DNA of 64,000 bases from Candidatus Woesearchaeota archaeon (GCA_016935095.1 JAFGRO010000002.1:3306-67305), one strand, 5' to 3'. Positions 1 through 18,687 are shown, counted from the stretch's first letter. Translations and numbers: made by a program. Notes: a model not told the origin generated them from the letters alone.

Positions 1-220
1 TAACTCCTGTTTTTTCAATGACCTGTTTTATCTCATTGATTCCGTCTCTATTAAAAACAGGGTTTTGCGAGATATCTTCTTCAAAAATCCATTCTATGCA
101 ATCAAGGCCAACTTTATTTGCTGAATAAAATTCATTTTTCCAGCTATCTTTAGGAAATGCCTGTATCCTGTTATTTACTGGCGGAGAAAGCCTTCCCTGC
201 ATCACACCAATTCTGTTCAT
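1..220 (-). CDS. Partial CDS (N-terminal 73 aa; continues beyond the window start). Xylose-isomerase-like TIM-barrel sugar phosphate isomerase/epimerase family; last gene of the nonulosonic acid operon.
   Basis: Reverse-complement translation starts MNRIGVMQGRLSPPVNNRIQAFPKDSWKNEFYSANKVGLDCIEWIFEED. The GxMQGRL N-terminus is typical of AP_endonuc_2/TIM-barrel sugar isomerases. Its start codon at 218-220 overlaps the upstream stop (ATGA), indicating translational coupling. Confidence 0.5.
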   Translation of the reverse strand, partial: MNRIGVMQGRLSPPVNNRIQAFPKDSWKNEFYSANKVGLDCIEWIFEEDISQNPVFNRDGINEIKQVIEKTGV

Positions 221-1678: not shown

Positions 1679-1682
1679 TTAA

Positions 1683-2714
1683 TTATAGATTATCCACTCT
1701 TCTTAGTTTTTTAATTATCGGCTTTTCCGACTCAAATATCTTTTTATTGCCGTCGCCTAAATATAAAGAGAGGAATTCAGCTTCTCTGGTAATATATTCC
1801 ATTCCCTTTTTTTCAAGGCTTGCTGCCTGGTCACTTCCATACATAGACCTGTCCAGGGTAATATGCCTTTCAACTACGCATGCTCCTAATGCGAGTGCAA
1901 CAACCGAAGGCATTATACCTGTTTCATGGCCGCTGTACCCTATAGGGCAGTTAAAGTATTTCCTGAATGTTTTTATAACATTAAGGTTCAGCTCTTCCAG
2001 CTTTGTAGGATAAGTTGATGTGCAATGCAGAATCACAAGATTTTCCTCGCCTAATATACTTAATGCTTTTTTGATTTCCTCCATTGAAGACATGCCTGTA
2101 GATAATATAACCGGCTTGCCTGTTTCTTTTATTTTATTCAGCAATGATTTATTCGTTAGAGTGGCTGAAGCAATTTTATAACATGGCACATCAAATTTTT
2201 CAAGAAAATCAACACTGCCGACATCCCAGGGAGAAGCGAACCACATTATGCCTTTTTCTTTGCAATACTCATCAATCTCTTTGTATTCTCTCTCTCCGAA
2301 TTCCAGTGCCCTTTTTAAATCACCGTTTGTAGTGCCAAAAGGACTTTCCCTTGCTCTTTCTAAGTCCTCTTTTGAATAAACAACATCAACATTCCTTTTT
2401 TGGAATTTAACAGCATGCCATCCGCAATTTACTGCCAGATCAATTAATTTTTTTGCAATATTTATATCACCGTTATGGTTAATACCTATTTCAGCAATTA
2501 AAAAAACGGGCTGCTTATGACCTATTAGCCTGTTGCCTATTTTTACTGGTTCCGGGTTTTTAATATCCAGGAATATTTTTTCATAAAAATTCCAAGCCTG
2601 GATAACTGCCTGGGTCTTATTCAGAATTAGCCCGCTGCTTTCATTGACATAGCTGCTGATCTTTTCATTTAATTCTTCAGGTATTGTTAAAGACATATAA
2701 CCTTGTTTTGGCAT
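1683..2714 (-). CDS. N-acylneuraminate-9-phosphate/nonulosonate synthase family (NeuB/LegI/PseI-like), copy 1
   Basis: FLIAEIGINHNGDINIAKKLIDLA is the NeuB TIM-barrel signature. A C-terminal SAF-like domain (LRRVDNL) is present. Same strand as and adjacent to the cytidylyltransferase. Confidence 0.9.
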   Translation of the reverse strand: MPKQGYMSLTIPEELNEKISSYVNESSGLILNKTQAVIQAWNFYEKIFLDIKNPEPVKIGNRLIGHKQPVFLIAEIGINHNGDINIAKKLIDLAVNCGWHAVKFQKRNVDVVYSKEDLERARESPFGTTNGDLKRALEFGEREYKEIDEYCKEKGIMWFASPWDVGSVDFLEKFDVPCYKIASATLTNKSLLNKIKETGKPVILSTGMSSMEEIKKALSILGEENLVILHCTSTYPTKLEELNLNVIKTFRKYFNCPIGYSGHETGIMPSVVALALGACVVERHITLDRSMYGSDQAASLEKKGMEYITREAEFLSLYLGDGNKKIFESEKPIIKKLRRVDNL

Positions 2715-2816
2715 TTTCCCACCTCTGTGTTATGTACAGTACCTTTTTTTATTTATTTAAATAATTTTCTGTCATAAATTAGTTTGTACAGTACAAGTAC
2801 CGTAATAGTTAAAGAA

Positions 2817-4454
2817 TTATCTCTTTTTTAATATGCTATTTATTGCTTTAATTAATCTGTCATTAGCTTTTCCATCTGTTTTATAACAATATTCATAAGT
2901 CTCATTTTTTCTTTTTTCATTAATAGATTCTCTGAAGTTTTCATCAAATAGCATTTTTTTAATCAATTCATTTAATTTGTCACCGTGCTTAACAATAAAG
3001 ATAGAAGATATTCCATCAAACATATTTTCAAATAAATTCTCTCCGGACTCAAATTTCAGCAAGATACAGGGCCTGTTTAAGATCATTGCCTCAATCAAAG
3101 CAGTTGAGCCGAAGCTAATTACCAAGTCAGATTCCAGAATGGAATTATATAATATATCAGCGTTTTTATTACTTAGTGAGCCAAACCTGAATCTAATGTT
3201 TTTAATCCCAATCTTTTTGATTATTTTTTTATGCAAAGATATGTCTTTTTCAAGAGGATGTGTTTTAATGATAATCTCGGAATCAGGAAACTCTTTTAAA
3301 TTGGAAAACAGATAAAATAAATATTTTTCAAACTTTTCTTTAGGAAGAACTTTAAACTGCACTAGCGGTGAAGATAAGATTAATATTTTTTTTTTCCCTT
3401 TCTTTTTTTCTTTCTTTTTTATATAATTGCAGATACGCTCATTAATAAAAGAGCCAGTAACAAATATATTTTCAGGTTTCCATTCAGAGTATTTGATCAG
3501 TCTTTTTTTATCATTCGGGCCCCATACAGCAATCTTCGAGCTTGGAAAAAATTCAAAATTTATTCCTGTTAAATTATATGCATGAACTAAAAATAAAGAA
3601 GGTATTCCAGAAGAATGGGCAGCAGCAACCGCACACCTTTCCTGCAGACCGGAAACAACCAGTACAAGATCCAGTTGCTCTTTTTTAATAATATCTTTGA
3701 TTGTGTAATAATAAAGCAGGTAAATGAACAATATTTGTTTTGAGAATAATAAATCCAGTTCTTCATTCACAAACTTCAATAAGGATTCTTTTTTATAAGC
3801 AAATAGTCTCTCTTTAATCTTTTTATCTAATCTTTTCCATTTCCCGGAATATTTTTTTGCTTCTTTTAATGAGCGATAAAATGTTTCTTTGGAAATATAC
3901 TTATCAATCCAGTGATAATACCCTGAGGAAAGAGGCTTTTCAAATGGATTAGTGATTCTTGTTCCGATTACAGGAATTAATTCAATTTTATTGTCCTTTT
4001 CAAGTCTCCTGAATAATTCTCCAATTCTGAAAATATCAATTATTTTTCTTTTTTCATCCAGTTTAATCTGGTCAGTATGCGCTAGAAGCATGACCCTTTT
4101 CTTTTTTGTCTTTTTGCTTTTTTTTTTAACATCCTTTTTTTTAATTAACCTGATATAGTATGTGAAAATAATCACGCTAAGAAAGATTCTGAGGCTGAAT
4201 GAGGCTAGTTTCATCATAAGCCTATGAAAAAAAGAATAATCTCTTTTATCTAAAATTGCATTAAACCGTTTTGTGATTTCAAAGAAAGGAAGCGGAAAGC
4301 AGCCGGCATTAAACCTGAATGAATGAAACCACCAGATTGGGATGTTATCATCAATTTTAAAGGAGTCATCAAAACTCTGTTTATTGTTGATTTTTTTTTT
4401 TGACCAAACAAGTAGTGTCTCTTCAATGTTTTTTAAGGTGTCTCTTGTTTTCAT
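2817..4454 (-). CDS. Membrane-anchored GT-B-fold glycosyltransferase-like protein (TagF/KpsS 'capsule polysaccharide biosynthesis'-like). Candidate CMP-nonulosonate transferase. Paralog of 15985..17610.
   Basis: Hydrophobic helix near residue 90 (LASFSLRIFLSVIIFTYYIRLI). Poly-Lys linker KKKDVKKKSKKTKKKR. CAVAAAHSSGIPSLFLVHAYN motif. C-terminal GT-B-like nucleotide-binding region (VISFGSTALIEAMILNRPCILL). Family assignment not confirmed. Confidence 0.5.
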   Translation of the reverse strand: MKTRDTLKNIEETLLVWSKKKINNKQSFDDSFKIDDNIPIWWFHSFRFNAGCFPLPFFEITKRFNAILDKRDYSFFHRLMMKLASFSLRIFLSVIIFTYYIRLIKKKDVKKKSKKTKKKRVMLLAHTDQIKLDEKRKIIDIFRIGELFRRLEKDNKIELIPVIGTRITNPFEKPLSSGYYHWIDKYISKETFYRSLKEAKKYSGKWKRLDKKIKERLFAYKKESLLKFVNEELDLLFSKQILFIYLLYYYTIKDIIKKEQLDLVLVVSGLQERCAVAAAHSSGIPSLFLVHAYNLTGINFEFFPSSKIAVWGPNDKKRLIKYSEWKPENIFVTGSFINERICNYIKKKEKKKGKKKILILSSPLVQFKVLPKEKFEKYLFYLFSNLKEFPDSEIIIKTHPLEKDISLHKKIIKKIGIKNIRFRFGSLSNKNADILYNSILESDLVISFGSTALIEAMILNRPCILLKFESGENLFENMFDGISSIFIVKHGDKLNELIKKMLFDENFRESINEKRKNETYEYCYKTDGKANDRLIKAINSILKKR

Positions 4455-4478: not shown

Positions 4479-6227
4479 TTAATGATATTCATTATTCTTC
4501 AATATTGAATCCAGAAACTTTGAATTATTATAGATGGCATTAGTAAAATCATCTATTTTTCCGGAATTAAATGCTTCAATAATCTCAAGAATTCCCTGTT
4601 CAGCCTTTAGTTTAGTCCTGAAATTTAATTCTTTTTTAATTTTATCAAAATTCACTCTATAGTCTCGTTTATCAACATCTTTAAGCGAAATGTTCATCTT
4701 TGAGCTGGGAATTAATTCTTTTATTTTTTCTCCTATTTCAATAATTTTATAATTCTCTTCATTAGAGCCAACATTAAAAATTTCTCCTTTTACTTTGTTA
4801 ATAGGCGCTTCCAGAACTTTGATGTATGCGTCAGCAGCATCTTTTACATGAAGCAAGGGTCTCCATTGCTCTCCTCCGAAAACTGAAAATTCTCCTTTTT
4901 TTATGGCCAACGCTGTCAATATGTTCAAAACCAAATCAAATCTTGGCCTGTGAGAGAATCCGTAAAGTGTGCCCATCCTCATGATTGTAGGAGAAAAGTT
5001 TTCATCAGTTAATTCAAATAAACCTTTTTCACTGTTAATCTTGTCTCTTGCATATAACGAGACAGGGCTTAATTCTGAGTCTTCTGTTAAAATATCCTGG
5101 CCCTGCCCATAGACACTGCAGCTGGAGGCAAAAATAAACCTGTTAATCTGGTTGTATTTGCATATCTGAGCTAAATTTAAGGTTGCAAGATAATTCTGCT
5201 CAATTGTTTTTAAGGGGGATAAACCACATGCAGGATCTCCCACTATTCCTGCCAGATGAATCACAGCATTAACATCTCTTATTGATTTTGTGATATCTTC
5301 AATATGCCTTACATCACCTGTAACCAACCTGAAATTCGGATGATTTTCCAATTCACTGAGAGACTCTTTCCCGTATAATAATCTGTCCAGAACAACAACC
5401 CAGTATCCTCTTTTTAGGAGTTTTCTGACCAAGACCGAGCCCAAATACCCTGCGCCTCCTGTCACAAGAACAGAATTTATTTTTTTGTTTTTATAAGTTG
5501 AATAATTACTAAGATAATCATAGTAACCTTTGTTATAAACCTGTTTAAGTGCAGTTACCCTGGCTTCTTTATCTAAAACAGGGATTTTAAGAAATTTATT
5601 ATGGGGGATTAATCTAATTAGCTCTTCATTATCCATATTTTCTGTTCCGGTGACTGGATTTTTATTCATAATTTTGCCAATAGGCTCTTCATGACTTACT
5701 CCGGACAGAATTCCCTCTCTTATATCATTATCTGTAACAAGTCCTTTTAACCTTTCATTATCATCAACAATTAATCCAATCCCTAACCCGGATAAATCAA
5801 TCTTTTTCATTACAGATTTTAAAGAGTCATTTTTATTTACAAACACTTTCTCAAGTTCTTTGCCTTTTATTGAAACAGGCAACTCACTAAACTTGATAAA
5901 AATGTCAGCAACTTTATTGTCATCATCCACTAGGATAAGTTTTCCGACAATATCTCTTTTTTCAGTTAGTTCAATAAGTTCCTGTTTAGAAGAATTAATG
6001 TGGGCTGTAACTGGATTAAAATTAGCAATGCTTTTCAGCTTTTTGTTAATGTCATTATCTTTTATAAGGCCTCTTCTTAAATCCCCTGCGCTTACAATGC
6101 CTTTTAGCTTTTTATCCTGGTCAACTAATATGAGAATGCCTAACCCTGTCTCATTTAATATGCCTAGTCCTTTTTCAATAGTTTCATCCTCATTAACAAG
6201 AAGGGAATCTATAATGCCCTCATTCAT
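4479..6227 (-). CDS. Fusion protein: N-terminal tandem CBS domains plus C-terminal NAD-dependent sugar-nucleotide 4,6-dehydratase/epimerase (PseB/LegB/CapD-like)
   Basis: The N-terminal ~240 aa carry repeated CBS-like segments (VTAHINSSKQELIELTEKRDIVGKLILVDDDNKV; LKGLVTDNDIREGIL). The C-terminus has the Rossmann motif VLVTGGAGYLGSVLVRKLL and an SDR extended-family fold. Confidence 0.85.
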   Translation of the reverse strand: MNEGIIDSLLVNEDETIEKGLGILNETGLGILILVDQDKKLKGIVSAGDLRRGLIKDNDINKKLKSIANFNPVTAHINSSKQELIELTEKRDIVGKLILVDDDNKVADIFIKFSELPVSIKGKELEKVFVNKNDSLKSVMKKIDLSGLGIGLIVDDNERLKGLVTDNDIREGILSGVSHEEPIGKIMNKNPVTGTENMDNEELIRLIPHNKFLKIPVLDKEARVTALKQVYNKGYYDYLSNYSTYKNKKINSVLVTGGAGYLGSVLVRKLLKRGYWVVVLDRLLYGKESLSELENHPNFRLVTGDVRHIEDITKSIRDVNAVIHLAGIVGDPACGLSPLKTIEQNYLATLNLAQICKYNQINRFIFASSCSVYGQGQDILTEDSELSPVSLYARDKINSEKGLFELTDENFSPTIMRMGTLYGFSHRPRFDLVLNILTALAIKKGEFSVFGGEQWRPLLHVKDAADAYIKVLEAPINKVKGEIFNVGSNEENYKIIEIGEKIKELIPSSKMNISLKDVDKRDYRVNFDKIKKELNFRTKLKAEQGILEIIEAFNSGKIDDFTNAIYNNSKFLDSILKNNEYH

Positions 6228-7417
6228 TTGCAGGCCTCTTTAACTTCAGTTTTGAATTTATGTATCCTGATAATAGCTTTACATATTTTGTTAATTGTCT
6301 CTTCATCCATGAAATTATAGATAGGAAGACAAATCACATTATTTGAAACAAGTTCAGTATTTTTTAAATCATTATATTCTGCTTTTTCTTTATAAGCATC
6401 AAGTTTATGCATCGGAGGATAAAAATAAAATTTTGTCATAATATTTTCAGCATTCAATGCTCTTGCTAATTCATACCTGTTTAATCCAAATTCATTTTCA
6501 TTGACAGTAAATCCAAAATCCTTGTGTGTGGAAACATTTCCCTCTTTAATAATCTGGAAATTGATGCCCTGAATGTTTTTTAGTTCCTTTTTAAATTTAT
6601 CAACATAACTGTTCCTGTTTTCAACATATTTATCTAAATCTTTTAATTGGTGCAATCCTGTGACTGCGTTGATTTCGCTCATCCTTGCATTTAAACCAGG
6701 CCTCTTGCAGGAATAATCAGGATAATTGCCATAGTTCCTGTCAATTTTTAACATTTCAGCTAATTCAGTGTTATTTGTGGCTACTATTCCTCCTTCTATT
6801 GTCGTCAAAAGCTTTGTCGGGCTGGCACTGAAAACCTCAACATCACCAAACTGCCCGATTTTTTTTCCCTGATAAGATGAACCTAATGCATGGGCACAGT
6901 CAAAGATTAATTTTAAGTTATGTTTGCTGGCAATTTCCTGTAATCTCTCAATATAACAAGGGTTTCCATACATATGTACAGCAATAATTGCCTTTGTTTC
7001 AGGACTGATATTTTTTTCAACTTCTTCAGGTGAAATAGTAAATGTTTCCCTGTCAATATCAACAAATCTGATTTTGCAGTTATTCCAGTATGCGGCATGG
7101 ACTGTTGCAGAAAAGGTAAATGCAGGAACTAGCACTTCTGAATTTCTTAAACCAAGTGCCTGCATACTTAAAATTAAGCCGGATGTACAGGAAGAAACGC
7201 CTATAACATGTTTAACACCAATATAGTTTTCCAGTTCCTCTTCAAATTTCTTTAGTTTAATATCAACAGAAGTAAGCATATTGCTGTTTAAAACAGCGCT
7301 AATGTCTTTCAGCAATTCTTTTTCAACATATTTATCAACATTGGGCCTTATAATCGGCAGTCTTTTATCAAAAACAGCTCTCCCATTTAAAATTGCAGGT
7401 TTATTGTCCATTTTCAT
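6224..7417 (-). CDS. DegT/DnrJ/EryC1/StrS-family PLP-dependent sugar aminotransferase (PseC/LegC-like)
   Basis: Aminotransferase class V-like fold with the PLP-lysine context FSASPTKLLTT. The ORF track starts it at 7477, but the MKMDNK start at 7417 avoids a 77-nt overlap with the upstream gene. Confidence 0.85.
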   Translation of the reverse strand: MKMDNKPAILNGRAVFDKRLPIIRPNVDKYVEKELLKDISAVLNSNMLTSVDIKLKKFEEELENYIGVKHVIGVSSCTSGLILSMQALGLRNSEVLVPAFTFSATVHAAYWNNCKIRFVDIDRETFTISPEEVEKNISPETKAIIAVHMYGNPCYIERLQEIASKHNLKLIFDCAHALGSSYQGKKIGQFGDVEVFSASPTKLLTTIEGGIVATNNTELAEMLKIDRNYGNYPDYSCKRPGLNARMSEINAVTGLHQLKDLDKYVENRNSYVDKFKKELKNIQGINFQIIKEGNVSTHKDFGFTVNENEFGLNRYELARALNAENIMTKFYFYPPMHKLDAYKEKAEYNDLKNTELVSNNVICLPIYNFMDEETINKICKAIIRIHKFKTEVKEACK

Positions 7418-8075
7418 TATCTCCTTTAAAAATAAATTTATTTCCATATACTTCCAGGTAAGGTAAATCCCTTGCATTTGGAAAATATGTTGCTTTTAAT
7501 CTTCTTTTAATTTCATTTTCATCCATATCAAGGCTTAATTTACATAGTTCCTGCAAATCTTTTCTTGTATATGGTCTTCTTAACCATTTCTCATCTGACC
7601 TGGGTAAGGGTTTCTCTTTTTCAATGAATTTGAGAATATCATAAAATAAGGTGAGCATATAATCCATGGTTCTTTCTTTTAAAGATTGTACTGTATCTGT
7701 ATCCTGCATCTGGAATTTGATGGTTTTCACAATTTTTCCAGAATCAACTTTTTCCAGCATATAATGACATGTGGCGCCAAATTCCTTTTCCTGATTATAA
7801 ATTGCAAAATTATAACAGCCGATGCCAGGATATTTTGGGGATGCGGGATGGAAATTTATTGAAAACTTGGCTTTATTCAATAATTCTTTTGGAACAATCC
7901 AAGGTGAAAGATACGAGATAATATAATCACCTTCCCATTCAATATTGGGGAGAGGGTCACCGCTTTCACCTTCAAATATTTCTGTATTCGGAATTTTATT
8001 TTTAATACAATCCTGAACAATTTTGCAGTATTTTGATTTTTTTGTTAATAATAGGATTTTCATTTTTAATAACAA
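7401..8075 (-). CDS. Sugar N-formyltransferase (Formyl_trans_N family)
   Basis: FHPASPKYPGIGCYNFAIYN...GATCHYMLEKVDSGKIV matches the formyltransferase SLLPxYRG/HxxxxxxDxG catalytic-core pattern. Sits between the aminotransferase and the 2-epimerase, in the slot usually filled by an N-acetyltransferase. Confidence 0.75.
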   Translation of the reverse strand: MLLKMKILLLTKKSKYCKIVQDCIKNKIPNTEIFEGESGDPLPNIEWEGDYIISYLSPWIVPKELLNKAKFSINFHPASPKYPGIGCYNFAIYNQEKEFGATCHYMLEKVDSGKIVKTIKFQMQDTDTVQSLKERTMDYMLTLFYDILKFIEKEKPLPRSDEKWLRRPYTRKDLQELCKLSLDMDENEIKRRLKATYFPNARDLPYLEVYGNKFIFKGDNENGQ

Positions 8076-9217
8076 ATCTGCTTTTGGATTATATCTTTTG
8101 AAATTTTGATTTCACTTAATACTTTACAGATTTTAACTGAAGCAGTCCCTTCTCCATAAGGGTTTTTTATGTTTTTTAATAAATCTTTAAAATTTTCATC
8201 ATATAATGCTTTATTAATCGCTTTAATAATATCAGATTTGTCAAACTCAACATCAATCACGTTATTGCTTCTTTCTCTTAGCTTTTGCCTTATGCCAATA
8301 TTTACCACAGGTATCTTAAAAGAGGGAGCTTCTATTATACCTGAGCTTGAATTTCCGATTAAAACAGAACCATATTTTAATAATGAGAGATATTCTCTGT
8401 GCTTTAAATTTTTAAAAATTCTTAAAAATTTTTGATTCTTATTTCCCTCAATTATTTTAATTATCTGAAGAGTCCCAGAATCAGCATTGGGATAAATCAA
8501 TACTGTTGGCAAATCAAATTCTTTAATTGCATCAAGTGTTATTTTAAATTGTTTTCCTGAAGACCCGATTTCAGTTGTGACAGGATGCTGTAGAAGTATT
8601 AAAAAAGGCATATCCGGATCAATATTGAATCTTTTTTTGAAATCTTGTTTTGACATTAATTCTTCATGCAAAGCAGTATCTAGTCCTGAAGAACCCACAT
8701 TAAAAACATAATCCGGATTTTCTCCCATTTTAATTATTCTCTGTTTACTTTTTTCTGTAACTGCAAAATGAATATGGCTGAATTTTGTTATGGCATGTCT
8801 TGTGCATTCATCAAGACCTCCTGAAACATCCCCTCCGTGAATATGGGCAATAACCTTATTCATAAATGCTCCTGAAACAGCAGCAGCCAACGGCTCTGTT
8901 CTGTCACCTAAAATCAATATAATATCAGGATTTAAGTCTTTGAAAGCATTGGTTAAATTAATAATGCCTTTACCAACAGACCTGCTCATAAATTCTCCGC
9001 TGTCTCCGACTTCAGTCATTGGGACTTTTTTATCAATTGCAAAACCGTCTTTAATAATGTCTTCATAGGTATTACCGTATTCTTCCAAAAGGTGCATGCC
9101 CGTTGCAATTAACTGTAATGTGATTTTGTCATTTTCAGCTAGTCTTTTTATAATTGGCCTTAAAAGCCCGTATTCTGCTCTGGTTCCGGTCACAACACAA
9201 ATCTTTGTTTTTTTCAT
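8066..9217 (-). CDS. UDP-N-acetylglucosamine 2-epimerase family, hydrolysing type (NeuC/LegG-like)
   Basis: KICVVTGTRAEYGLLRPIIKRL and HIHGGDVSGGLDECTRHAITK are Epimerase_2 (WecB/NeuC) signatures. Confidence 0.85.
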   Translation of the reverse strand: MKKTKICVVTGTRAEYGLLRPIIKRLAENDKITLQLIATGMHLLEEYGNTYEDIIKDGFAIDKKVPMTEVGDSGEFMSRSVGKGIINLTNAFKDLNPDIILILGDRTEPLAAAVSGAFMNKVIAHIHGGDVSGGLDECTRHAITKFSHIHFAVTEKSKQRIIKMGENPDYVFNVGSSGLDTALHEELMSKQDFKKRFNIDPDMPFLILLQHPVTTEIGSSGKQFKITLDAIKEFDLPTVLIYPNADSGTLQIIKIIEGNKNQKFLRIFKNLKHREYLSLLKYGSVLIGNSSSGIIEAPSFKIPVVNIGIRQKLRERSNNVIDVEFDKSDIIKAINKALYDENFKDLLKNIKNPYGEGTASVKICKVLSEIKISKDIIQKQICY

Positions 9218-9228
9218 TTATTCCACTC

Positions 9229-10365
9229 TTATTCCAGCATCTCAAATGTAATTAAAGTGTCTTTTTTAATATCCTCTTTTGCTTTTCTTCCAATGATTTT
9301 TTCTAAAAATCTCGGGTGCAGACCCATGCCCGGTCTTTTAATTATTAAATCTTTCTTTTCTATTAACTTGCCTTTATTGATGTCTTTATCTGAGATTATG
9401 CTTTTTCTTGTAATTTTTGCAATTCGTAACTCTGCGTCATATGGTTTTTTTTCAGGTGACCCGAGGATTTTTTCAATATTATCTAATTTCAGATTCTCAC
9501 CAAATTGTTTATTAATCTCTTCAAAAGCCTGTTTTGGAGAGAGAATCTTATTATTAAAAATAAATCTTGAATATTTCATTATTTTTTCAATTTCATCAGG
9601 TTCAGCAGAAGCTTTGTGGTCAGGGCCATACATTTTTTTATCAAGTGTAAAATGTTTTTCAATTACATTAGCGTTAAGACATGCCGCTATTACAGATGCT
9701 TCAATTCCCTCACTATGATCCGAGAATCCGACCAGACAATTAAATTCATTTTTAAGTGTAAGCATTGCTCTCAGGTTAATTTTATCAAGAAGCGTTGGAT
9801 AATTAGTAGTGCATTGCAGTAATATGAGTTGGTCATTATTTTTCTTAATCACATCTACAGCTTCTCTGACTTCCTGTAAATTAGCCATTCCCGTACTAAG
9901 AAAGATTGGTTTGCCTAATCTTGAAACATAATCTAAAAACGGCAAATTAGTCAAATCTCCTGAACCAATTTTAAATCCGGGAATTCCAATTTTATCAAGA
10001 ACATCAGCACTCCATTTGCCGCAGTGAGGTGTTGATAAAAAAATAATCCCCTTCTTGTCACAGTACTCTTTCATGATTTTGTGTTGCTCTTCTGTTAATT
10101 CTATCCTTTTTAATAATTCAAGATAACTTTCATCACTTCCTGTGTTTTTTTTTGAATACTCGACCTGTTCTGTTTTTTCTGTTACAAGCAGTTCTGCTTT
10201 AAAAAGCTGGAACTTAATACTATCAACACCGATTTCCAGGGCTTTGTCAACTAATTCCTTTGCAATTTTAATATCTCCGTTATGGTTGACTCCGGCTTCA
10301 GCAATAATAAAGCAGGGATGATTTTGTCCGATTATTTTGTTGCCAATCTTAATTTTATCTTTCAT
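9229..10365 (-). CDS. Nonulosonate synthase (NeuB/LegI-like), copy 2, with C-terminal SAF domain
   Basis: CFIIAEAGVNHNGDIKIAKELVDKALEIG is the NeuB signature. The C-terminal ~60 aa look like a SAF antifreeze-like domain (LIIKRPGMGL). Confidence 0.9.
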   Translation of the reverse strand: MKDKIKIGNKIIGQNHPCFIIAEAGVNHNGDIKIAKELVDKALEIGVDSIKFQLFKAELLVTEKTEQVEYSKKNTGSDESYLELLKRIELTEEQHKIMKEYCDKKGIIFLSTPHCGKWSADVLDKIGIPGFKIGSGDLTNLPFLDYVSRLGKPIFLSTGMANLQEVREAVDVIKKNNDQLILLQCTTNYPTLLDKINLRAMLTLKNEFNCLVGFSDHSEGIEASVIAACLNANVIEKHFTLDKKMYGPDHKASAEPDEIEKIMKYSRFIFNNKILSPKQAFEEINKQFGENLKLDNIEKILGSPEKKPYDAELRIAKITRKSIISDKDINKGKLIEKKDLIIKRPGMGLHPRFLEKIIGRKAKEDIKKDTLITFEMLE

Positions 10366-11582
10366 TTCTCAGTCTCCCATATTGGGTGTCTCAGCTTCCA
10401 TTCTCCTTTTTCCTTTTTCCATAAATGAGGCGACCTGAATTTATCCGCTGTCTCAAAAAATTCATCTTTGCTCATATCCAGATACTCTAAAAATTCTTTG
10501 AAATATCGTTTTGGAAATTCTGAATCAAATTTCTTTACTAATGCAATCCCTTCATCCCTTGTGATCTTTTTATTCCTTATCTCCTGGGATGCATCATAGG
10601 TTGCTCTTCCAATCCCGAATTTGATAAGAGTTGTCCAATAATGATAAGGGTCTGTCTTGTCATCAATACTGTTATATTTTGAATAAGTTCCTTCGGTTCT
10701 CTGGTCATTTGGCTGAAACCCTATCTTTTCAACAGCAAAATAATAAGCTTCCTGGGGATCCCATTTCTCATAATAGCCGACGTAGTGTACATTGATTTCT
10801 TTATTATTTGCACTATCCGGATCAAGAGGAAGATAAGGATCAAGGTCAGTCATAGTTAATCCGTATTTTTTAATAAGCTCTCTGACCTGCACTCCTCCAA
10901 GGAATAAATTCATATAATCTCCATGTAAATGAAATTTTTTTTCTCTGAGAGAAGAAAGAACATCTTTTTTTGGGTTGCCGTATTCTGCTTCATTTTCACC
11001 GTAAAATACTAGAGGGACATCATACTTTAATGCAAATTTAGCCCCAATGTTTTTTTGTCCGAGAATAAACGGCTGGAATGGGTGAAGTAAATTGACAAAT
11101 GCTAATCTCGTTAATAACCTGTGTACCTTGCCATTTGGTGTAAACAGTATATTGTCAAATCCCCCTTTTTGAGTCCATGCGCGGAAATTACGCCACCCGT
11201 AAGGTGTAAATAAATGAGGTGCCCATGTAACAGTAAGAGGGTTCATATTGTATTTGTATTTTAACAGCCATGCTGCCATTGTGCTATCCTTGCCTCCGCT
11301 TCCCGGCACTATGCAATCATACCTACCCTCTGTTCTTCTGTATTTGTCACATAATCTTTTTAATTCTTTTTCTCTTTTTTTCCAGTCGATTTTCTCTTTT
11401 AATTCTGAAACTCTGCATGCATCGCAGATTCCTTCTTCATCAAAGTTGATGGTGTGTTTTTTGGATTTAACTGTATGTCTGAATTCCAGTGAAGAAGAAG
11501 GTCTTTGATTTGAAATAACACAATGTTTGCAGTATTTCACTTCTTTTGGTAATCCATAATATGCTTCTACGTTATTGTTCAT
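10362..11582 (-). CDS. N-acetyl sugar amidotransferase (WbuX/PseA/AglX family; PP-loop ATP pyrophosphatase)
   Basis: N-terminal Zn-ribbon cysteines (CKHCVISNQRP...GICDACR). PP-loop SGGKDS. Immediately upstream of a HisF/HisH paralog, as in the WbuXYZ / AglXYZ systems. Confidence 0.8.
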   Translation of the reverse strand: MNNNVEAYYGLPKEVKYCKHCVISNQRPSSSLEFRHTVKSKKHTINFDEEGICDACRVSELKEKIDWKKREKELKRLCDKYRRTEGRYDCIVPGSGGKDSTMAAWLLKYKYNMNPLTVTWAPHLFTPYGWRNFRAWTQKGGFDNILFTPNGKVHRLLTRLAFVNLLHPFQPFILGQKNIGAKFALKYDVPLVFYGENEAEYGNPKKDVLSSLREKKFHLHGDYMNLFLGGVQVRELIKKYGLTMTDLDPYLPLDPDSANNKEINVHYVGYYEKWDPQEAYYFAVEKIGFQPNDQRTEGTYSKYNSIDDKTDPYHYWTTLIKFGIGRATYDASQEIRNKKITRDEGIALVKKFDSEFPKRYFKEFLEYLDMSKDEFFETADKFRSPHLWKKEKGEWKLRHPIWETEK

Positions 11583-11592
11583 TTTTTCACCT

Positions 11593-13026
11593 TTATAAAG
11601 AACTAAAATATTGTATTATACTCATACCCAATGCTCCGCTTTTTTCCGGGTGGAACTGTGTTGCAAACAGACTGTCTCTTCTTAATATTGAGCAGAATTT
11701 CTGCTCACCGTATGTTGTTATTGCAACAATATTTTTCGGGTTTTCAGGATAAACATAATATGAATGAATAAAATAAGCTTCTGAGCAAGAAGACTTATTT
11801 GAAATAAACTCATTAAAGAATCCATTATTAGGTGTTAACTTATTCCAACCCATGTGAGGGATCCTGTAATATGTGTCCTTAACCTCTTTTTTAGGTTTAA
11901 AAGGAACTACTTTTCCCTGTATAATATCAAGCCCTTTATGATGTCCGAACTCAAAGCTTTCACTCATCAATACCTGCATTCCGAGACAGATTCCTAAAAA
12001 AGGTTTATTGTTCTTAATATATTTTTTAATCGGTTCAATAAAACCCCTGTTTTTAAGCTCCTGCATAGCATAACCAAATGCCCCGTCCCCTGGTAAAACC
12101 AAAAGGCTTGACTTTAGGATCTCTTCAGGATTTTCAATAATCTTTACTTTGTTCCCAAAAAACCTGAAAGCATTTACAACACTTTGTAAATTGCCTGCTC
12201 CGTAATCAATAACAGAGAGGGTCTTTTTATTATTGATATTTGGCTGTTCAACTTGCCATTCATTTTTTTCTCTCATTAAAAAATTATTTTTTTTAAGGTA
12301 AGCTTTTACTTGGTCTATAGATGTTTCATTATAATGTAAGATTGTACCAAAAGCAACAGCATCACATCTGGTTACTTCAAGACAATTCAGTATATCTGCT
12401 TCATTAGAAGCTCCTCCGCAAGCTATAACCGGCACATCAACCACAGATGAGATCTTTTTTATTAGTTCAACATCATATCCTTTTCTTGTCCCTTCCTTAT
12501 CCACAGAAGTAACAAGCAATTCTCCTGCACCTAATTCAACTAATTTTTTTGCCCATTCAATAGCATCTAGATTTGTTCTTTCCCTTCCGCAGTCAATATA
12601 GTTCTCCCATTTATCTTCTCCATGATATTTTGCTTCAATAGAGCCTACTATACACTGTGATCCGAACATTCTTGAAGCCTGATTAATAAATCCGGGATTT
12701 CTTATTGCAGCAGTATTAATTGCAACTTTATCTGCTCCTGCTCTCAGCAGTTTCTTAATATCTTCTATGGTCCTTATACCTCCTCCGACAGTGATAGGAA
12801 TAAAAATCCCGTTAGAGGTTGTATTTTCAACTACCTCAAGAAGATTGTTTCGCTCGTATAAACTGGCAACAATATCAATATAAATTATTTCATCAGCTCC
12901 TGACTCATAATACTTCTTAGCAAGCAAATCAGGCTTGCCTACAACTCTTAAACCTTCCATTTGTATTCCCTTGACAACATTAGGTCCCTTTACATCCAGT
13001 CTTGGAATAATTCTGATTTTCTTCAT
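11593..13026 (-). CDS. Fused imidazole-glycerol-phosphate-synthase-like protein: HisF-like cyclase domain (WbuZ) at the N-terminus and HisH-like class I glutamine amidotransferase (WbuY) at the C-terminus
   Basis: N-terminus IIPRLDVKGPNVVKGIQMEGLRVVGKP plus a second half-barrel (VTSVDKEGTRKGYD) give a HisF fold. C-terminus LSVIDYGAGNLQSVVNAFRFFG...GICLGMQVL...FHPEKS carries the GATase Cys-His-Glu triad. Confidence 0.85.
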   Translation of the reverse strand: MKKIRIIPRLDVKGPNVVKGIQMEGLRVVGKPDLLAKKYYESGADEIIYIDIVASLYERNNLLEVVENTTSNGIFIPITVGGGIRTIEDIKKLLRAGADKVAINTAAIRNPGFINQASRMFGSQCIVGSIEAKYHGEDKWENYIDCGRERTNLDAIEWAKKLVELGAGELLVTSVDKEGTRKGYDVELIKKISSVVDVPVIACGGASNEADILNCLEVTRCDAVAFGTILHYNETSIDQVKAYLKKNNFLMREKNEWQVEQPNINNKKTLSVIDYGAGNLQSVVNAFRFFGNKVKIIENPEEILKSSLLVLPGDGAFGYAMQELKNRGFIEPIKKYIKNNKPFLGICLGMQVLMSESFEFGHHKGLDIIQGKVVPFKPKKEVKDTYYRIPHMGWNKLTPNNGFFNEFISNKSSCSEAYFIHSYYVYPENPKNIVAITTYGEQKFCSILRRDSLFATQFHPEKSGALGMSIIQYFSSL

Positions 13027-13721
13027 TTTATCTCCATTAATTTTTCAGCTATCTTCCAGTCAATAGGCTCATCAATATCTATAGAACTGATCTTATCCAT
13101 AGGAAAGGGGAATACCCTTTTTCCATAGCCATAATTACCTGATTTAAAAATTACATCTGATGTGTAAATATAAATAGCCCCGTTTATTTCATAGGTTTCT
13201 TCTTCATCCTGTGTTCTTAAGACATTAAAATCATTCTCAAAAAGAAATCTTACTTGATTTTTCTCTTTTTTTAAAATCCACTGCGGACCAAGATGTCTCT
13301 TTGTCACAGAAAACAATGTGTCTGCATTATTGTCAGCAAATATTTTTATTGCAGAATCAATATGCTCGGCTTTTCTTAATGGAGATGTTGGTTGCAGCAG
13401 GACAACAATATCCGGAATATATTTCTCATTTGCATTCAGATAATTTAAAACATGCTTTAATACATCAATTGATTTAGACGTATCTTCTGCAAGTTCTTTT
13501 GGTCTGTCGATAATCTCCGCTTTGTATAGCAATGCACTGGCTTTTATTTCAGGGTCTTCAGTAGATACTATTGTCCTGTCAATATATTTTGAGTTTAGGG
13601 ATTGCTCAATAGAATAAGCAATTAACGGCCTGCCTTTTAATAATCTAATATTTTTTTTTTTAATTCTTTTAGAGCCGCCTCTGGCAGGAATTATTGAGAT
13701 AATCTTTCTCTTACCATACAT
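13023..13721 (-). CDS. Acylneuraminate cytidylyltransferase family (CMP-nonulosonate synthetase), copy 2
   Basis: IISIIPARGGSKRIKKKNIRLLKGRPLIAYSIEQS is a CTP_transf_3 signature. 4-nt overlap with the downstream gene. Confidence 0.85.
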   Translation of the reverse strand: MYGKRKIISIIPARGGSKRIKKKNIRLLKGRPLIAYSIEQSLNSKYIDRTIVSTEDPEIKASALLYKAEIIDRPKELAEDTSKSIDVLKHVLNYLNANEKYIPDIVVLLQPTSPLRKAEHIDSAIKIFADNNADTLFSVTKRHLGPQWILKKEKNQVRFLFENDFNVLRTQDEEETYEINGAIYIYTSDVIFKSGNYGYGKRVFPFPMDKISSIDIDEPIDWKIAEKLMEIK

Positions 13722-14220
13722 AAGGATCTACCCTGTCTTTATCATCATATTCCTTCAGTTTAAGCAGGTCATATGTTTCGAATTTGTATGCTACAGTTGT
13801 AAGTGATTCAGACCACTCGCTGATAAGATTGCTGTTCTTCTTTTTAATCTCGTCACTTACCCTTGCCAAATCCTCATGGTTTTTGGCAATTATGACAAGT
13901 GTGAAATCATATTCACCTGAGATTGAAAATACTTCTGCAATTCGCGGGTGTTTTACTACAAATTCTATGAATGATTGTACTTTTTTATGGTCATAGTTGT
14001 GCAACTTTACTTTTATGTCTACAATATAGGGATATCCAAGAATCCTTGGTCTCAGCTGGATTTTCGGGTTAAAAATCTTTTCTTTTCTCATCTTTTCAAT
14101 TCTTTTTTTTACTGAGTCAACAGAAAGCCCGACCTTTTTAGCTATGTCAGTCAGTGACATCCTGCAGTCTTCCTGAAGCAGATTCAGAATAAGACAGTTT
14201 TTTTTGTCTAAATCAACCAT
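13711..14220 (-). CDS. lrp: Lrp/AsnC-family transcriptional regulator (HTH plus RAM domain), first gene of the 14-kb operon
   Basis: N-terminal HTH LLQEDCRMSLTDIAKKVGLSVDSVKKRIEKM. C-terminal RAM/AsnC_trans_reg-like domain. 169 aa is typical for archaeal Lrp. Confidence 0.85.
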   Translation of the reverse strand: MVDLDKKNCLILNLLQEDCRMSLTDIAKKVGLSVDSVKKRIEKMRKEKIFNPKIQLRPRILGYPYIVDIKVKLHNYDHKKVQSFIEFVVKHPRIAEVFSISGEYDFTLVIIAKNHEDLARVSDEIKKKNSNLISEWSESLTTVAYKFETYDLLKLKEYDDKDRVDPYVW

Positions 14221-14507: not shown

Positions 14508-15953
14508 ATGTTCACAAAAAAAAACAAAGTATTGTTTATAATTCATGATGTATACCAGGAAGATAATCAGTTTCCATTAGGTCCAGGTTATCTTGCTGCT
14601 GTTCTTAATGATAAAGGAGCTTATGTTGAATCATACTGTATGGATATATTTCATTATACCCATGAGCAGCTGGCAGAGCATTTGCAGAAAAACGAGTATG
14701 ATTTAATATGTCTGGGCTTTTTAGCTGCCAGGTTCAAGGAAACAGTTCTTGATTTAAGCAGAGTTATTAATCAGAATAAGAAAAATGCATGGCTTGTTTT
14801 AGGTGGTCACGGTCCCTCTCCGATTCCTGAATATGTGCTAAAAACCACACAGGCAGATGTTATTGCTATAGGCGAGGCAGAAAACACTATTGTTGAATTA
14901 TTAAAATGCAAAATATCAGATGGTGATTTATCAGAAGTGCATGGCATTGCTTACCCTGAAAATAATGAAATAAGAATAACGCAAAAAAATAATATTGTTA
15001 AAAATCTGGACAACATCCCTTTTCCCTTGTGGGATATATTTCCAATGGCTAAATATACTACTTGTTTACAATTATTTAATCAGGAGTCAAATGAAAAAAG
15101 TTTTGTATTCCTCACGAGCAGGGGCTGTGTAAACAGGTGTAATTTCTGCTACAGGCTTGAAAAAGGGCTGAGATTAAGAAGTATATCAAATATTATTGAA
15201 GAATTCAGACAATTATATGACAGATATGGTTTGAATTGTTATTTTTTCATGGATGAATTATTTGTATTAAATAAAAAACGGTTATTGGAATTTGAAAAAG
15301 CACTTAAAGATGCAAATCTGAAAATAAAATTCTCCTGCAATGCAAGAGTTGACATTATGGATGAAGAAATGGTGAGGATTCTTAAAAGATGCGGCTGCCA
15401 ATTTATAAATTTCGGTTTTGAATCAAGCGATGATAATGTGCTTAAACTCATGAATAAAAATGCGACTGTTGAACAAAATATAAGGACGCTTGAGGTTGTT
15501 AAGAAGGTAGGAGGAATAGGGATGGGTCTTAATTTTCTCTGGAATAATTTAGGTGATAGCGAAAGAACCCTGAAGCAGAATGTTGCATTAATAAAGAGAT
15601 ACAACACATATGACCAATGCCGTACAATCAGACCTGTTACGCCTTATCCCGGATCTGATTTATATTATAAATTGATTGAGCTAGGGAAACTAAAAGGTCC
15701 TGAAGATTTTTTTAACAGGTTTATAAATTCAGATTTAATTTTAGTTAACCTTATGGATATGCCAGATAAAGAAGCATATCAGCATTTGTTAAAAGCAAAC
15801 ACAGAGCTTATTCTTGACCATTATAAGCATACCCAAGGAGATATGGAAAAGGCAAATGCGCTTATCCGGAAATTCAAAGACTTGTATGAGGGCAGGATAA
15901 CTAATTTTCGTGGTGCCAGGCATTATAACAAAAACGAGCAACAGAGTAAATAG
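14508..15953 (+). CDS. Cobalamin-binding (B12) radical SAM protein, class B radical-SAM family
   Basis: N-terminal B12-binding-like Rossmann domain (KVLFIIHDVYQ...LGPGYLAAVL...DLICLG). Radical-SAM cluster motif RGCVNRCNFCY (CxxxCxxC). Confidence 0.85.
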   Translation: MFTKKNKVLFIIHDVYQEDNQFPLGPGYLAAVLNDKGAYVESYCMDIFHYTHEQLAEHLQKNEYDLICLGFLAARFKETVLDLSRVINQNKKNAWLVLGGHGPSPIPEYVLKTTQADVIAIGEAENTIVELLKCKISDGDLSEVHGIAYPENNEIRITQKNNIVKNLDNIPFPLWDIFPMAKYTTCLQLFNQESNEKSFVFLTSRGCVNRCNFCYRLEKGLRLRSISNIIEEFRQLYDRYGLNCYFFMDELFVLNKKRLLEFEKALKDANLKIKFSCNARVDIMDEEMVRILKRCGCQFINFGFESSDDNVLKLMNKNATVEQNIRTLEVVKKVGGIGMGLNFLWNNLGDSERTLKQNVALIKRYNTYDQCRTIRPVTPYPGSDLYYKLIELGKLKGPEDFFNRFINSDLILVNLMDMPDKEAYQHLLKANTELILDHYKHTQGDMEKANALIRKFKDLYEGRITNFRGARHYNKNEQQSK

Positions 15954-15984: not shown

Positions 15985-17610
15985 TCAGGTTCCGGCAATT
16001 CTGTAAATCTCTTTTACAATATTTTCTGTCCCGTTAAAAGGCTGATATAAATATTTTTCAATCTCTCTCCGGTTTTTATTAAGGACTTTTGTGAGTTTAT
16101 TTTTATTATTCACAATCCTGGCTACCTTTGAAAAATCATCTTTTATTCCCTGTTTTATAATGGTTTCTAGTTCATTGTATTCATAACCGCCGATTTGCTC
16201 ATATCCCGGAACAACAAAATAAACAACCAGTTTGTTCATCAGGATTGTATCAATCATACAGGTTGATCCGAAAGAAATGCAGAACAGGCTGTTCTTTATT
16301 AAATTGTGCAGTATTTTCTGGTTATTGTGATCACTTTTAGACCTTATTATCTCAATATCCATATCTTTGAATCTGTTCTTGAAGTTGTAATATGAATTAA
16401 TCAGCTTTTCAGCCGGGTGCAGTTTAATTTTAACCTTATTAAATCCTCTGTTTTTGAGGTTTTTCAGTATGGTCTCAATAATGGATGAATATTGCTTTTT
16501 GCTAAAATAATTATCTTCAACAACAGGCTGGGTAAATAAGAGAACATATTGTCCTGAAATATCCTGATTCTGCTGTATCTCAAATTTAAGATCTTCAAAT
16601 AAATTAGTTCCTGTTGCAATTATTCGTTTTAAAGCTTCCTTGTTTTGGTATTTGGCAATAATCTTTCTTTGGGGTTTTCCGAATGTAAAATAATATTGCT
16701 TTTCCAAAAGATAAAGATACTCCAATTCAAATAATGGTCCGTGCTGGATTATAACAGAAGGAATATTTCCTGTATGTGCAGCGGCATGCGCACATTCATC
16801 TAAAAGGCCCCAGGTAGAAAATATCAGCTTGATCTTCCTTTGCTTTATGATTTTTTCAAATGTATAATAATATAAAAAGACAATACTTAACCACTCTTCT
16901 GAAAACAGGAAATTAAATTCTTCTTCAATATAGGGATAGAATGATTTGTTTTTGAGAGCAAGTATCTTTTTTATTTTATTTTTACTGAGCCTTTTCCATT
17001 TGAAATTATACTCCCTGGCTTTACGCAGGGATTTTTTAAACAGGGTATCATCAAAAAAATCTTCTGCCCTTAGAAAATCCATGCTTGGCTTAATATTTGA
17101 GAAATATGATAAGGGTTGTATCGAAACTAAATTGCATTCAAATTTATTATCTTTTTTTATTTTTTCAATGATGCTGCTCAGCCTGTAGGCAGTTACTTTG
17201 TCATTTATTGTCCGGATCTGGTCTGCATATGTCTGGAACAATATCCCTTCTCTGCTGCAATTAGTTGTCTCGGGCCTGTTCAATTTCCAGGTAAACCACC
17301 TGAAATAAAAAACAAATTTTAGATACATTAAGACAAGGCCAAATGCAATCTTCTTATTTATTTTATATAAAATGCTTCTCTTCTTATTCTTCAGGTATGC
17401 ATTAATATTGTCCTGTAAATTCCAGGATCTTATATTAAACGGCGTTCTGATTAATTTATCCTTTAGAAACCAAAATAAGGGAATTCCATTAAAATCAAGA
17501 AATTTGCCGGTTTCTATATCCTTACCTTTATATTCCGCAAATTTATAAATTAAATATCTTACCTTTTCCAGAATTTCATTACTCATTTGTATGGACCTTT
17601 GATTATTCAT
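15985..17610 (-). CDS. Membrane-anchored GT-B-like glycosyltransferase-like protein, paralog of 2817..4454
   Basis: Shares with 2817..4454 its architecture and the CAHAAAHTGNIPSVIIQHGP motif, a hydrophobic helix near residue 100 (FGLVLMYLKFVFYFRWF), and a C-terminal GT-B-like segment (FCISFGSTCMIDTILMNKLVVYF). Confidence 0.5.
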   Translation of the reverse strand: MNNQRSIQMSNEILEKVRYLIYKFAEYKGKDIETGKFLDFNGIPLFWFLKDKLIRTPFNIRSWNLQDNINAYLKNKKRSILYKINKKIAFGLVLMYLKFVFYFRWFTWKLNRPETTNCSREGILFQTYADQIRTINDKVTAYRLSSIIEKIKKDNKFECNLVSIQPLSYFSNIKPSMDFLRAEDFFDDTLFKKSLRKAREYNFKWKRLSKNKIKKILALKNKSFYPYIEEEFNFLFSEEWLSIVFLYYYTFEKIIKQRKIKLIFSTWGLLDECAHAAAHTGNIPSVIIQHGPLFELEYLYLLEKQYYFTFGKPQRKIIAKYQNKEALKRIIATGTNLFEDLKFEIQQNQDISGQYVLLFTQPVVEDNYFSKKQYSSIIETILKNLKNRGFNKVKIKLHPAEKLINSYYNFKNRFKDMDIEIIRSKSDHNNQKILHNLIKNSLFCISFGSTCMIDTILMNKLVVYFVVPGYEQIGGYEYNELETIIKQGIKDDFSKVARIVNNKNKLTKVLNKNRREIEKYLYQPFNGTENIVKEIYRIAGT

Positions 17611-17664: not shown

Positions 17665-18687
17665 ATGATTAATTTAATTAAACAAAAATTTCAGTCTTTT
17701 GCAAATAATAACCTGTTATTCAAAAAAACCCTTTTCTTTTTAATAAATACCTTCCCTTTTGATAAAGTTTACGATTTTTTGTATAAAAATCAGATTAAAA
17801 AAATAGCTACAAAAATAAAAATTCCAGGTTATATCCTTATTGAGCCGTACAATGTCTGCAATGCCCGCTGCACAATTTGTCCTTATAAAAAAATGACCAG
17901 GAAAAAACAGCTCATGCAGATGAAATTGTTCAAAAAAATCATTGATGACTGTAAAAATAACAATATTAAGACAATTGATTTAACGTTTTATAATGAGGCT
18001 TTTTTAGACCCGCTTCTGTTTGAGAGGATAAAGTATGTTAAAGACAACAATCTGAGGATTTATCTTTTTTCAAATGGTTCTGTTTTAAATAAACAAAATA
18101 TTGACAGAATTCTTGAGATGGAAGTAGATGATATCAGTTTCAGCCTTGATGGTGCAGCTAAAAAAACATATGAAAAAATCAGAAAAGGCCTGAATTATGA
18201 TACAGTTAAGGAGAATATTCTGAATTTAATAAAAGAAAGAGATAAGAGGAAACTCAAGAAACCAAGAATCGAGCTGAATTATGTAATCACAAATGAGAAT
18301 TTAGCTGAAATTGAAAAATTTAAGGGACAATGGAAAAATCTTGCTGATAATATAAGGTTTAGTGTTGTTGACACCCGGGAACAGGAAAACAAGCTTCCGA
18401 AAAAATATAAAGTAAAAAAATCAAAAAAGCCATGGCCATGCACGAGAATCTGGGAAGCAATGCAGGTAATGAGCAATGGAAAAGTAGTGATGTGCTGTGT
18501 TGATTATGATGGTGAAGTTATTGTAGGTGATTTAAATAAACAGACCATTAAGGAAATATGGGACAGTGATAAATTTAAAAGATTAAGATTGCTGCATTTA
18601 AAAAATAAAGCAGATAAAATCCCCCTATGCAGGAAATGTTCCTGGCTTTACAGGCACAACAGGGTTAACTGGTGGTTTTTTAATTAA
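17665..18687 (+). CDS. Radical SAM protein with C-terminal SPASM/twitch-type auxiliary Cys cluster
   Basis: CNARCTICPY (CxxxCxxC) near the N-terminus. C-terminal cysteines WPCTRIW...MCCVDYDG...CRKCSW fit a SPASM auxiliary 4Fe-4S domain. Confidence 0.8.
   Translation: MINLIKQKFQSFANNNLLFKKTLFFLINTFPFDKVYDFLYKNQIKKIATKIKIPGYILIEPYNVCNARCTICPYKKMTRKKQLMQMKLFKKIIDDCKNNNIKTIDLTFYNEAFLDPLLFERIKYVKDNNLRIYLFSNGSVLNKQNIDRILEMEVDDISFSLDGAAKKTYEKIRKGLNYDTVKENILNLIKERDKRKLKKPRIELNYVITNENLAEIEKFKGQWKNLADNIRFSVVDTREQENKLPKKYKVKKSKKPWPCTRIWEAMQVMSNGKVVMCCVDYDGEVIVGDLNKQTIKEIWDSDKFKRLRLLHLKNKADKIPLCRKCSWLYRHNRVNWWFFN

Follow-up and report, generated by a model that had tools for sequence, protein, structure and literature searches.

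A HisF-HisH-type fusion protein beside a WbuX-type amidotransferase in a Woesearchaeota gene cluster: a probable single-chain ammonia supplier for acetamidino sugar formation

What is the role of a protein that carries a HisF-like barrel and a HisH-like glutaminase in one chain when its gene lies among genes for glycan synthesis? This question is raised by a stretch of 64,000 nucleotides (nt) from Candidatus Woesearchaeota archaeon (GCA_016935095.1 JAFGRO010000002.1:3306-67305), here called the window, in which such a gene sits beside one for a WbuX-type N-acetyl sugar amidotransferase (NASAT). The same three parts occur in WbuX/WbuY/WbuZ of Escherichia coli O145, WbpG/HisH2/HisF2 of Pseudomonas aeruginosa O5 and AglX/AglY/AglZ of Methanococcus maripaludis, which are likewise clustered in glycan loci and share the same proposed ammonia hand-off (PMC11445079). 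In these three-protein acetamidino systems the glutaminase and the barrel are separate, whereas in the window they form one polypeptide. Our analysis makes it quite probable that the window encodes the glutamine-dependent, acetamidino-forming module of a legionaminic-acid-type pathway, with the glutaminase and the barrel fused into a single chain. Positions below are counted from the first letter of the window.

The gene for the fused protein, of WbuZ-WbuY type (11593-13026, minus strand), is a continuous open reading frame (ORF) of 477 unbroken codons, and at its ATG end it shares 4 nt with the stop end of the cytidylyltransferase gene upstream. Hidden Markov models (HMMs) from Pfam placed both domains in this one chain, with His_biosynth at residues 5-235 (E=1e-64) and GATase at residues 272-464 (E=6e-23). 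In alignments to solved structures, residues 4-252 match HisF proteins and residues 270-474 match HisH, and against yeast HIS7 the halves are swapped, with residues 270-474 corresponding to HIS7 7-211 and residues 24-252 to HIS7 274-551. An earlier reading made from the sequence alone (the sequence-only reading) had claimed a 477-residue fusion in the order HisF then HisH, opposite to HIS7, and had named a stop codon or frameshift between the domains as the way in which this could fail. There is none between 11593 and 13026, so the fusion stands, and the Pfam positions together with the swapped alignment bear out the order.

Alignments to solved HisF structures, a Foldseek search and residue tables delimit a (beta/alpha)8 barrel at residues 1-246 (12289-13026), which is joined by a linker (residues 247-269; 12220-12288) to a HisH-like class-I glutaminase (residues 270-477; 11596-12219). 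The glutaminase domain scores 188.4 bits against the NCBIfam HisH model TIGR01855, above the cutoff of 105.4. It carries the expected triad as Cys347 (11986-11988), His459 (11650-11652) and Glu461 (11644-11646), which is conserved across the fused homologues (Cys in 150/150, His in 148/150 and Glu in 148/150). An AlphaFold2 model built from a 46-sequence alignment reached a mean predicted local distance difference test score (pLDDT) of 90.8 and a predicted template modelling score (pTM) of 0.92. This indicates a confidently packed, defined two-domain arrangement of the modelled chain. The linker is predicted to be coil, with no regular structure by DSSP in the model and a pLDDT of about 74-78, and across the family its length differs from that in the window protein by about -7 to +44 residues. 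The barrel superposes on HisF-LUCA with a Foldseek template modelling score of 0.95, normalised to the target. This search of the PDB recovered the HisF barrel only; its alignment is sequential and blind to the two-domain layout.

Could the fusion be an artefact of assembly, made by a frameshift or a lost stop codon? In genomes the two genes are usually split, F before H, with so little between them (the median distance from the HisF to the HisH homology region is 30 nt) that an error in one base could pass for a fusion. Set against this, all of the at least 120 homologue clusters listed are fused in the same order, with lengths of 439-535 residues, 92-100% query coverage and 46-65% identity, and they stem from many independent contigs, samples and assemblers and have variable linkers. 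The large all-fused clade described below and the single well-packed chain of the AlphaFold2 model argue in the same direction. We rejected the artefact on the fused homologues and the clade and regard it as next to impossible. The homologue listing is biased to fused proteins because two domains outscore one. We also searched 1.84 billion representatives (50% identity) exhaustively with HMMER and classified the best 150: 75 were single HisF-like proteins, 31 were fused F then H, and at least 38 were fused H then F. Between them, the fused clusters listed and the 31 fusions among these 150 show that the sequence-only reading overstated how unusual the fusion is. Taxonomy comes from the few named entries of the homologue listing, which are Woesearchaeota, Nanoarchaeota, Promethearchaeota and Omnitrophica. 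Public relatives are labelled HisF or HisH, and NCBI lists under the name 'imidazole glycerol phosphate synthase subunit HisF' a protein from 'Candidatus Woesearchaeota archaeon' that is 100% identical to the fused protein.

The gene next to the fused gene, 10 nt away, encodes a protein of 406 residues (10362-11582, minus strand) with an AGGTGA ribosome-binding site directly 5' of its ATG. It gave no Pfam match and scored 374.6 bits against the NCBIfam WbuX model TIGR03573 (cutoff 203.2). The N-acetyl sugar amidotransferase of Legionella pneumophila (PDB 8WEX) aligned with it end to end at 561 bits over query residues 5-406. NASATs are defined by a PP-loop, SGGxDS, and a tetracysteine zinc motif, CxxC...[GN]xCxxC (PMC10607449). 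The window protein has SGGKDS at residues 95-100 (11283-11300) and the cysteines C18, C21, C53 and C56 (CKHC at 18-21; G-I-CDAC at 51-56). The TIGR03573 and 8WEX scores therefore rule out a tRNA-thiolation PP-loop enzyme, and the sequence-only reading was right to call the neighbour a genuine WbuX. By every sequence criterion applied it is assigned to the NASAT/WbuX family. The same PP-loop and zinc motif are found in Legionella LpNASAT (8WEX; lpg0748/ORF28) and Campylobacter PtmG, in an operon where neuA, neuB and neuC lie alongside, as in the window. LpNASAT extends about 35 residues further at the N-terminus and has an insert close to its C-terminal end; the window WbuX has neither. The Legionella partner is listed as 'HisF' lpg0749.

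Because the public name points to histidine biosynthesis, we weighed whether the fused protein is a true bifunctional imidazole glycerol phosphate (IGP) synthase. The structures of Thermotoga maritima (1GPW) and yeast HIS7 (1JVN) have the same folds, glutaminase triad, four-residue gate and Asp98-equivalent as the window protein, and the general scheme, in which a glutaminase is followed by a barrel tunnel and an acceptor site, is common to both. Solved HisF proteins are 40-49% identical to it, its HisH domain is above cutoff, and hisF TIGR00735 is the top NCBIfam match (284.7 bits), although this falls short of the cutoff of 294.55. The residues separate the two. For these we used T. maritima HisF numbering from a reference sequence that was checked against PDB alignments. 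The window barrel keeps Asp11 but has Glu131 at the position of the catalytic Asp130 and Arg9 at the position of Cys9. The sequence-only reading had called for a check of the HisF aspartates, and of these Asp11 is in place and Asp130 is not; the glutaminase triad, for which it had called as well, is present.

These replacements characterise the lineage. At the Asp130 position, the 149 F-then-H fusions have Glu in 105, Gln in 33, Asp in 3 and His in 2, and the 70 WbuX-adjacent split proteins have Glu in 60, Gln in 8 and Asp in 2. By contrast, the H-then-F set, which was made up of 47 proteins with a C-terminal HisF domain, has Asp in 47/47. At the Cys9 position the WbuX-linked proteins have Arg or Lys, and 40 of the 47 H-then-F proteins have Cys. 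Asp11 is retained in about 97% of the WbuZ-type proteins. The signature of Glu or Gln in place of Asp130 is common to the window and the three-protein acetamidino systems, whereas IGP synthase has Asp130 and Cys9.

Gene context follows the residues. In a metagenome scan, 19 loci had Arg or Lys at position 9 and a residue other than Asp at 131 (17 Glu, 1 Gln and 1 Val), and WbuX was within 3 kb in 15 of these. No WbuX was found in the flanks of about 66 loci of that scan with Cys9, Asp11 and Asp130, which have a hisH-hisA-hisF layout. The window contains no his gene and no other copy of HisF, HisH or WbuX. IGP synthase, by comparison, belongs to the his operon, and HIS7 is ordered H then F with an intact cyclase site. 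The window protein is ordered F then H in a glycan context, has lost Asp130, and leaves the acceptor chemistry to a third protein. A neighbour-joining (NJ) tree of 403 HisF-like domains separated the WbuX-linked proteins, fused and split, from canonical HisF in 91/100 bootstraps; the resulting WbuZ-type clade has 268 sequences (148 fused, 81 split, 35 free and 4 other) and includes the fused protein. By phylogeny, signature residues and context the barrel is classed as WbuZ-type; without Asp130 it is not a canonical HisF, and it is not predicted to be an IGP cyclase. Domain order and cyclase site likewise set the protein apart from HIS7-type enzymes. We consider the histidine role, which residues, phylogeny and context led us to reject, very unlikely.

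Compact H-then-F fusions (P0137-P0245, about 455-510 residues) were numerous in our searches. With Asp130 retained, and Cys9 in most, they resemble genuine fused IGP synthases and differ from the eukaryotic forms, which have about 550-600 residues. The one whose context we examined, P0137 (L169 1154-2602), sits between hisB (IGPD) and hisIE, unlike the fused gene of the window.

We also compared the arrangement of fused and split loci. A WbuX homologue with 43-76% identity to that of the window was near every F-then-H fused locus examined. It was the adjacent gene in 7/8 fused loci (L081/82, L083, L084, L085, L086, L087 and L168) and about 2 kb from the fused gene in L167. Gaps between the adjacent fused gene and WbuX, measured in L081-L087 and L168, were 13-93 nt between stop-to-stop ORFs. 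L081 and L082 are from Promethearchaeota and L083 from Omnitrophica; L167 and L168 are distant fusions outside the main fused clade. Genes for NeuB, NeuC and a CMP-transferase accompany the fused gene and WbuX in the window and in L081-L086, and an AsnC regulator like the one at the head of the window's gene row sits next to the fused gene in L085 and in L086.

For the split system, the window's WbuX was scanned against one genome per GTDB species. This yielded 80 loci, all bacterial, from candidate phyla radiation (CPR) groups, Bacteroidota, SAR11, Campylobacterota, Gammaproteobacteria and others; the scan gave neither the source genome nor an archaeal locus, so the comparison of fused and split forms runs between data sets. 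Both a HisF-like and a HisH-like gene were present in 69/80 loci, in all 69 on the same strand and in the order F then H, and a single partner, at a contig end, in 5/80. Fused partners were found in 0/80. These counts agree with the claim of the sequence-only reading that the partners of WbuX are normally separate. The pair was within 150 nt of WbuX in 61 of the 69, with 49 in the order F-H-X, as in the window, and 12 in the order X-F-H. On inspection L090, L091 and L096, which contain unusually long ORFs, proved to be ordinary X-F-H split loci. The domain order of the fused protein, which had been singled out as reversed, is therefore not special; it follows the gene order, F then H, that is universal in the split system. 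We infer that the fusion originated by loss of the stop codon between neighbouring HisF-like and HisH-like genes, which would account for its F-then-H order.

Some loci depart from one F/H unit per WbuX. Two WbuX paralogues flank a single F/H unit in L033, L035, L046, L064 and L081; in L081 the WbuX genes are at 8728-9855 and 11483-12685, and the second copy shares 33% identity with that of the window. In such loci a single source of ammonia might feed two amidotransferases that act on different sugars. In L009, L022, L066 and L069 the same glycan region holds a second, divergent pair in the order HisH then HisF, about 7-10 kb from WbuX. These pairs are about 30% identical to the window protein, have no hisA in between, and may be paralogous ammonia suppliers for another enzyme.

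Whether the fused forms make a clade, as had been raised for comparative genomics, has a mixed answer. In a first tree the window protein was in a large fused clade of 122 sequences without a split member, and after the closest split relatives were added the clade comprised 102 sequences, all fused. Its exact membership was unstable, being recovered in 12/100 bootstraps with a mean best-F1 of 0.95, and 29 other F-then-H fusions were scattered among split WbuZ-type proteins in the first tree, where Fitch parsimony counted about 16 changes between the fused and split states. The clade trees were made by NJ only and the result is provisional. These data suggest one successful fused lineage together with repeated fusion or fission.

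How would the module work? We infer the transfer of ammonia, the docking geometry, the substrate and the product from the genes, domains, residues, lineage and linkage presented here. The C-terminal domain would hydrolyse glutamine at Cys347/His459/Glu461, and the ammonia would pass into the N-terminal barrel through a gate of Arg5, Glu46, Lys100 and Glu169 and leave at the opposite face. All four gate residues are kept in the window protein and near-invariant across the family, and the Asp98-equivalent (Asp99) is conserved in 143/149 fused proteins. The WbuX-type enzyme would dock at the ammonia-exit face and, at its PP-loop, spend ATP on activating the carbonyl of an N-acetyl group on a sugar. 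This group is most likely the N5-acetyl of a 5,7-diamino nonulosonic acid activated with cytidine monophosphate (CMP) and made by the neighbouring genes. Ammonia would then replace the activated oxygen, and the acetamidino group would result.

This scheme is close to what has been proposed for related systems. The PP-loop and zinc site of NASATs have been seen in structure, and their use of ATP, giving AMP and pyrophosphate, has been proposed (PMC10607449). HisF2 and HisH2 have been proposed as the ammonia suppliers of WbpG, and a contact between HisF2 and WbpG was predicted and then confirmed by co-immunoprecipitation (PMC11445079). The conversion of CMP-Leg5Ac7Ac to CMP-Leg5Am7Ac has been attributed to the Legionella/Campylobacter homologue (PMC3766260). 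The role in ammonia supply suggested by the sequence-only reading matches the published proposal (PMC11445079), and the conserved triad and gate would fit it. It is also plausible that fusion would fix a 1:1 stoichiometry and aid channelling, as that reading held, and that it would keep the tunnel entrance sealed. The sugar differs between the systems; it would be a nonulosonic acid in the window, versus FucNAc or ManNAc3NAcA in the three named systems (PMC10607449). A literature search carried out largely without subscription papers returned no description of a HisF-HisH fusion in an acetamidino system, and 'HisFH' in that literature denotes a heterodimer.

Several observations weigh against this reading. 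The barrel scores below cutoff with the WbuZ model TIGR03572 (276.1 vs 299.7), as it does with hisF, and also with NF038364 (196.3 vs 310), so HMM scores alone cannot assign it. No HisF or HisH partner was within 10 kb in 6/80 WbuX loci, and free ammonia may therefore suffice for some NASATs. The NeuB of the cluster scores just at its cutoff (399.2 bits for TIGR03569, cutoff 399.65), and its cytidylyltransferase is below cutoff for PseF (TIGR03584, 157 bits). The putative substrate and the stereochemistry of the sugar are drawn from homology only. Finally, WbuZ-type barrels retain Asp11 and most of both phosphate-binding sites of HisF, for which a simple ammonia conduit has no obvious use. A phosphorylated ligand may therefore bind to the barrel as well, whether to trigger it allosterically or as a portion of the substrate.

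The last point leads to another explanation, in which the barrel is more than a conduit and binds a nucleotide-sugar or other phosphorylated ligand in a catalytic or allosteric role, or in which the unit serves multiple acceptor enzymes. The near-constant Asp11, the retained phosphate-site residues and the five loci with two WbuX paralogues around one F/H unit are in its favour. On the other side, Glu or Gln occupies the second catalytic position, and Gln, present in 33/149 fused proteins, cannot act as a general acid/base; the published model and the co-immunoprecipitation (PMC11445079) require an ammonia hand-off only. We judge this explanation improbable, less so than a histidine role, and prefer the barrel as an ammonia conduit to a separate WbuX.

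The surrounding genes bear on the substrate. The window has a G+C content of about 32%, and a row of minus-strand genes with several 4-nt overlaps runs from 14220 down to 4479. It is headed by an AsnC/Lrp-type regulator (13711-14220; PF13404, PF01037) and a NeuA/PseF-like CMP-nonulosonate cytidylyltransferase (13023-13721; PF02348, E=8e-28), followed by the fused gene and WbuX. The start of the next gene, for a NeuB-type nonulosonic acid synthase (9229-10365; PF03102, 278 bits), overlaps the WbuX stop by 4 nt. Downstream are genes for a NeuC-type hydrolysing 2-epimerase (8066-9217; TIGR03568 NeuC_NnaA, 455 bits, cutoff 235.9), a formyltransferase-like protein (7401-8075; PF00551, 47 bits), a DegT/LegC/PseC-type sugar aminotransferase (6224-7477; PF01041, 349 bits) and a short-chain dehydrogenase/reductase (SDR) nucleotide-sugar 4,6-dehydratase of 582 residues with N-terminal CBS domains (4479-6227; PF01370, 167 bits; PF00571, 65 bits; weak LegB match). 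By its predicted products this gene set is that of a legionaminic-acid-type, that is 5,7-diamino nonulosonic acid, pathway.

The formyltransferase-like gene occupies the usual place of a LegH/PseH-type N-acetyltransferase, and a Formyl_trans_N gene also follows WbuX in L086 (12750-13391). As speculation, it hints at a 7-N-formyl, 5-N-acetimidoyl product. Its ORF begins with TTG, and 77 nt of it are shared with the aminotransferase ORF; the start site of one or the other is probably miscalled. An SDR protein of 554 residues in L086 resembles the CBS-containing dehydratase of the window, and L085 has a cytidylyltransferase-NeuB fusion of 582 residues. Subunit and enzyme fusions seem frequent in such clusters.

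A further nonulosonic-acid gene set lies directly downstream on the minus strand (217-4454). It contains a second NeuB, 40% identical to the first copy (1683-2714), a second cytidylyltransferase (923-1678), a methyltransferase dependent on S-adenosylmethionine (SAM) (217-936) and a 545-residue protein with a weak C-terminal Epimerase_2 match only (2817-4454). The latter, which may be a nonulosonate transferase, resembles 'polysialyltransferase/Epimerase_2'-like genes of L084 and L086. Two NeuB/NeuC/CMP-transferase sets are likewise present in L086. On the other side of the row are genes for a B12-binding radical-SAM enzyme (14508-15953, plus strand), a 541-residue protein without a Pfam match (15985-17610, minus), a radical-SAM/SPASM enzyme (17665-18687, plus) and an AsnB-type glutamine amidotransferase (18680-20542, minus). 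Radical-SAM and AsnB genes also accompany the fused gene in L083, L085, L086 and L167, and they may add more sugar modifications.

The window thus holds a fused-subunit variant of a known three-protein system, in which the single-chain architecture is the sole novelty and one that is abundant in public sequence data. Current understanding is not overturned, and the interest of the finding is modest and lies in annotation and structural work. Because residues, phylogeny and context place the barrel with WbuZ, the public 'HisF' label is misleading and would cause the fused protein to be miscounted as histidine biosynthesis in reconstructions of DPANN, Asgard and candidate-phylum organisms. In the data examined, a glycan role goes with the order F then H, Arg or Lys at position 9, Glu or Gln at 131 and a WbuX neighbour, and a histidine role with the order H then F or a split H-A-F order, Cys9 and Asp130. 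The fusion is also 'Rosetta-stone' evidence for a 1:1 complex of the HisF-like and HisH-like partners of NASATs, and it offers a single-chain construct for structural work on the proposed hand-off of ammonia to the amidotransferase.

More tentatively, and with the odds somewhat against it, the F-then-H fusion could be a largely single, horizontally mobile lineage of DPANN archaea, Asgard archaea and Omnitrophota in which a catalytically silent conduit barrel (Asp130 to Glu/Gln) is tethered to the glutaminase. If true, the fused protein would be a naturally occurring one-chain 'ammonia pump' with a separate third enzyme as recipient, and a compact model for a three-site ammonia relay. The module points to acetamidino-modified nonulosonic acids on the surfaces of uncultured archaea and, were the broader idea to hold, tiny symbiotic archaea would be coated with zwitterionic sugars of the acetamidino-legionaminic type.

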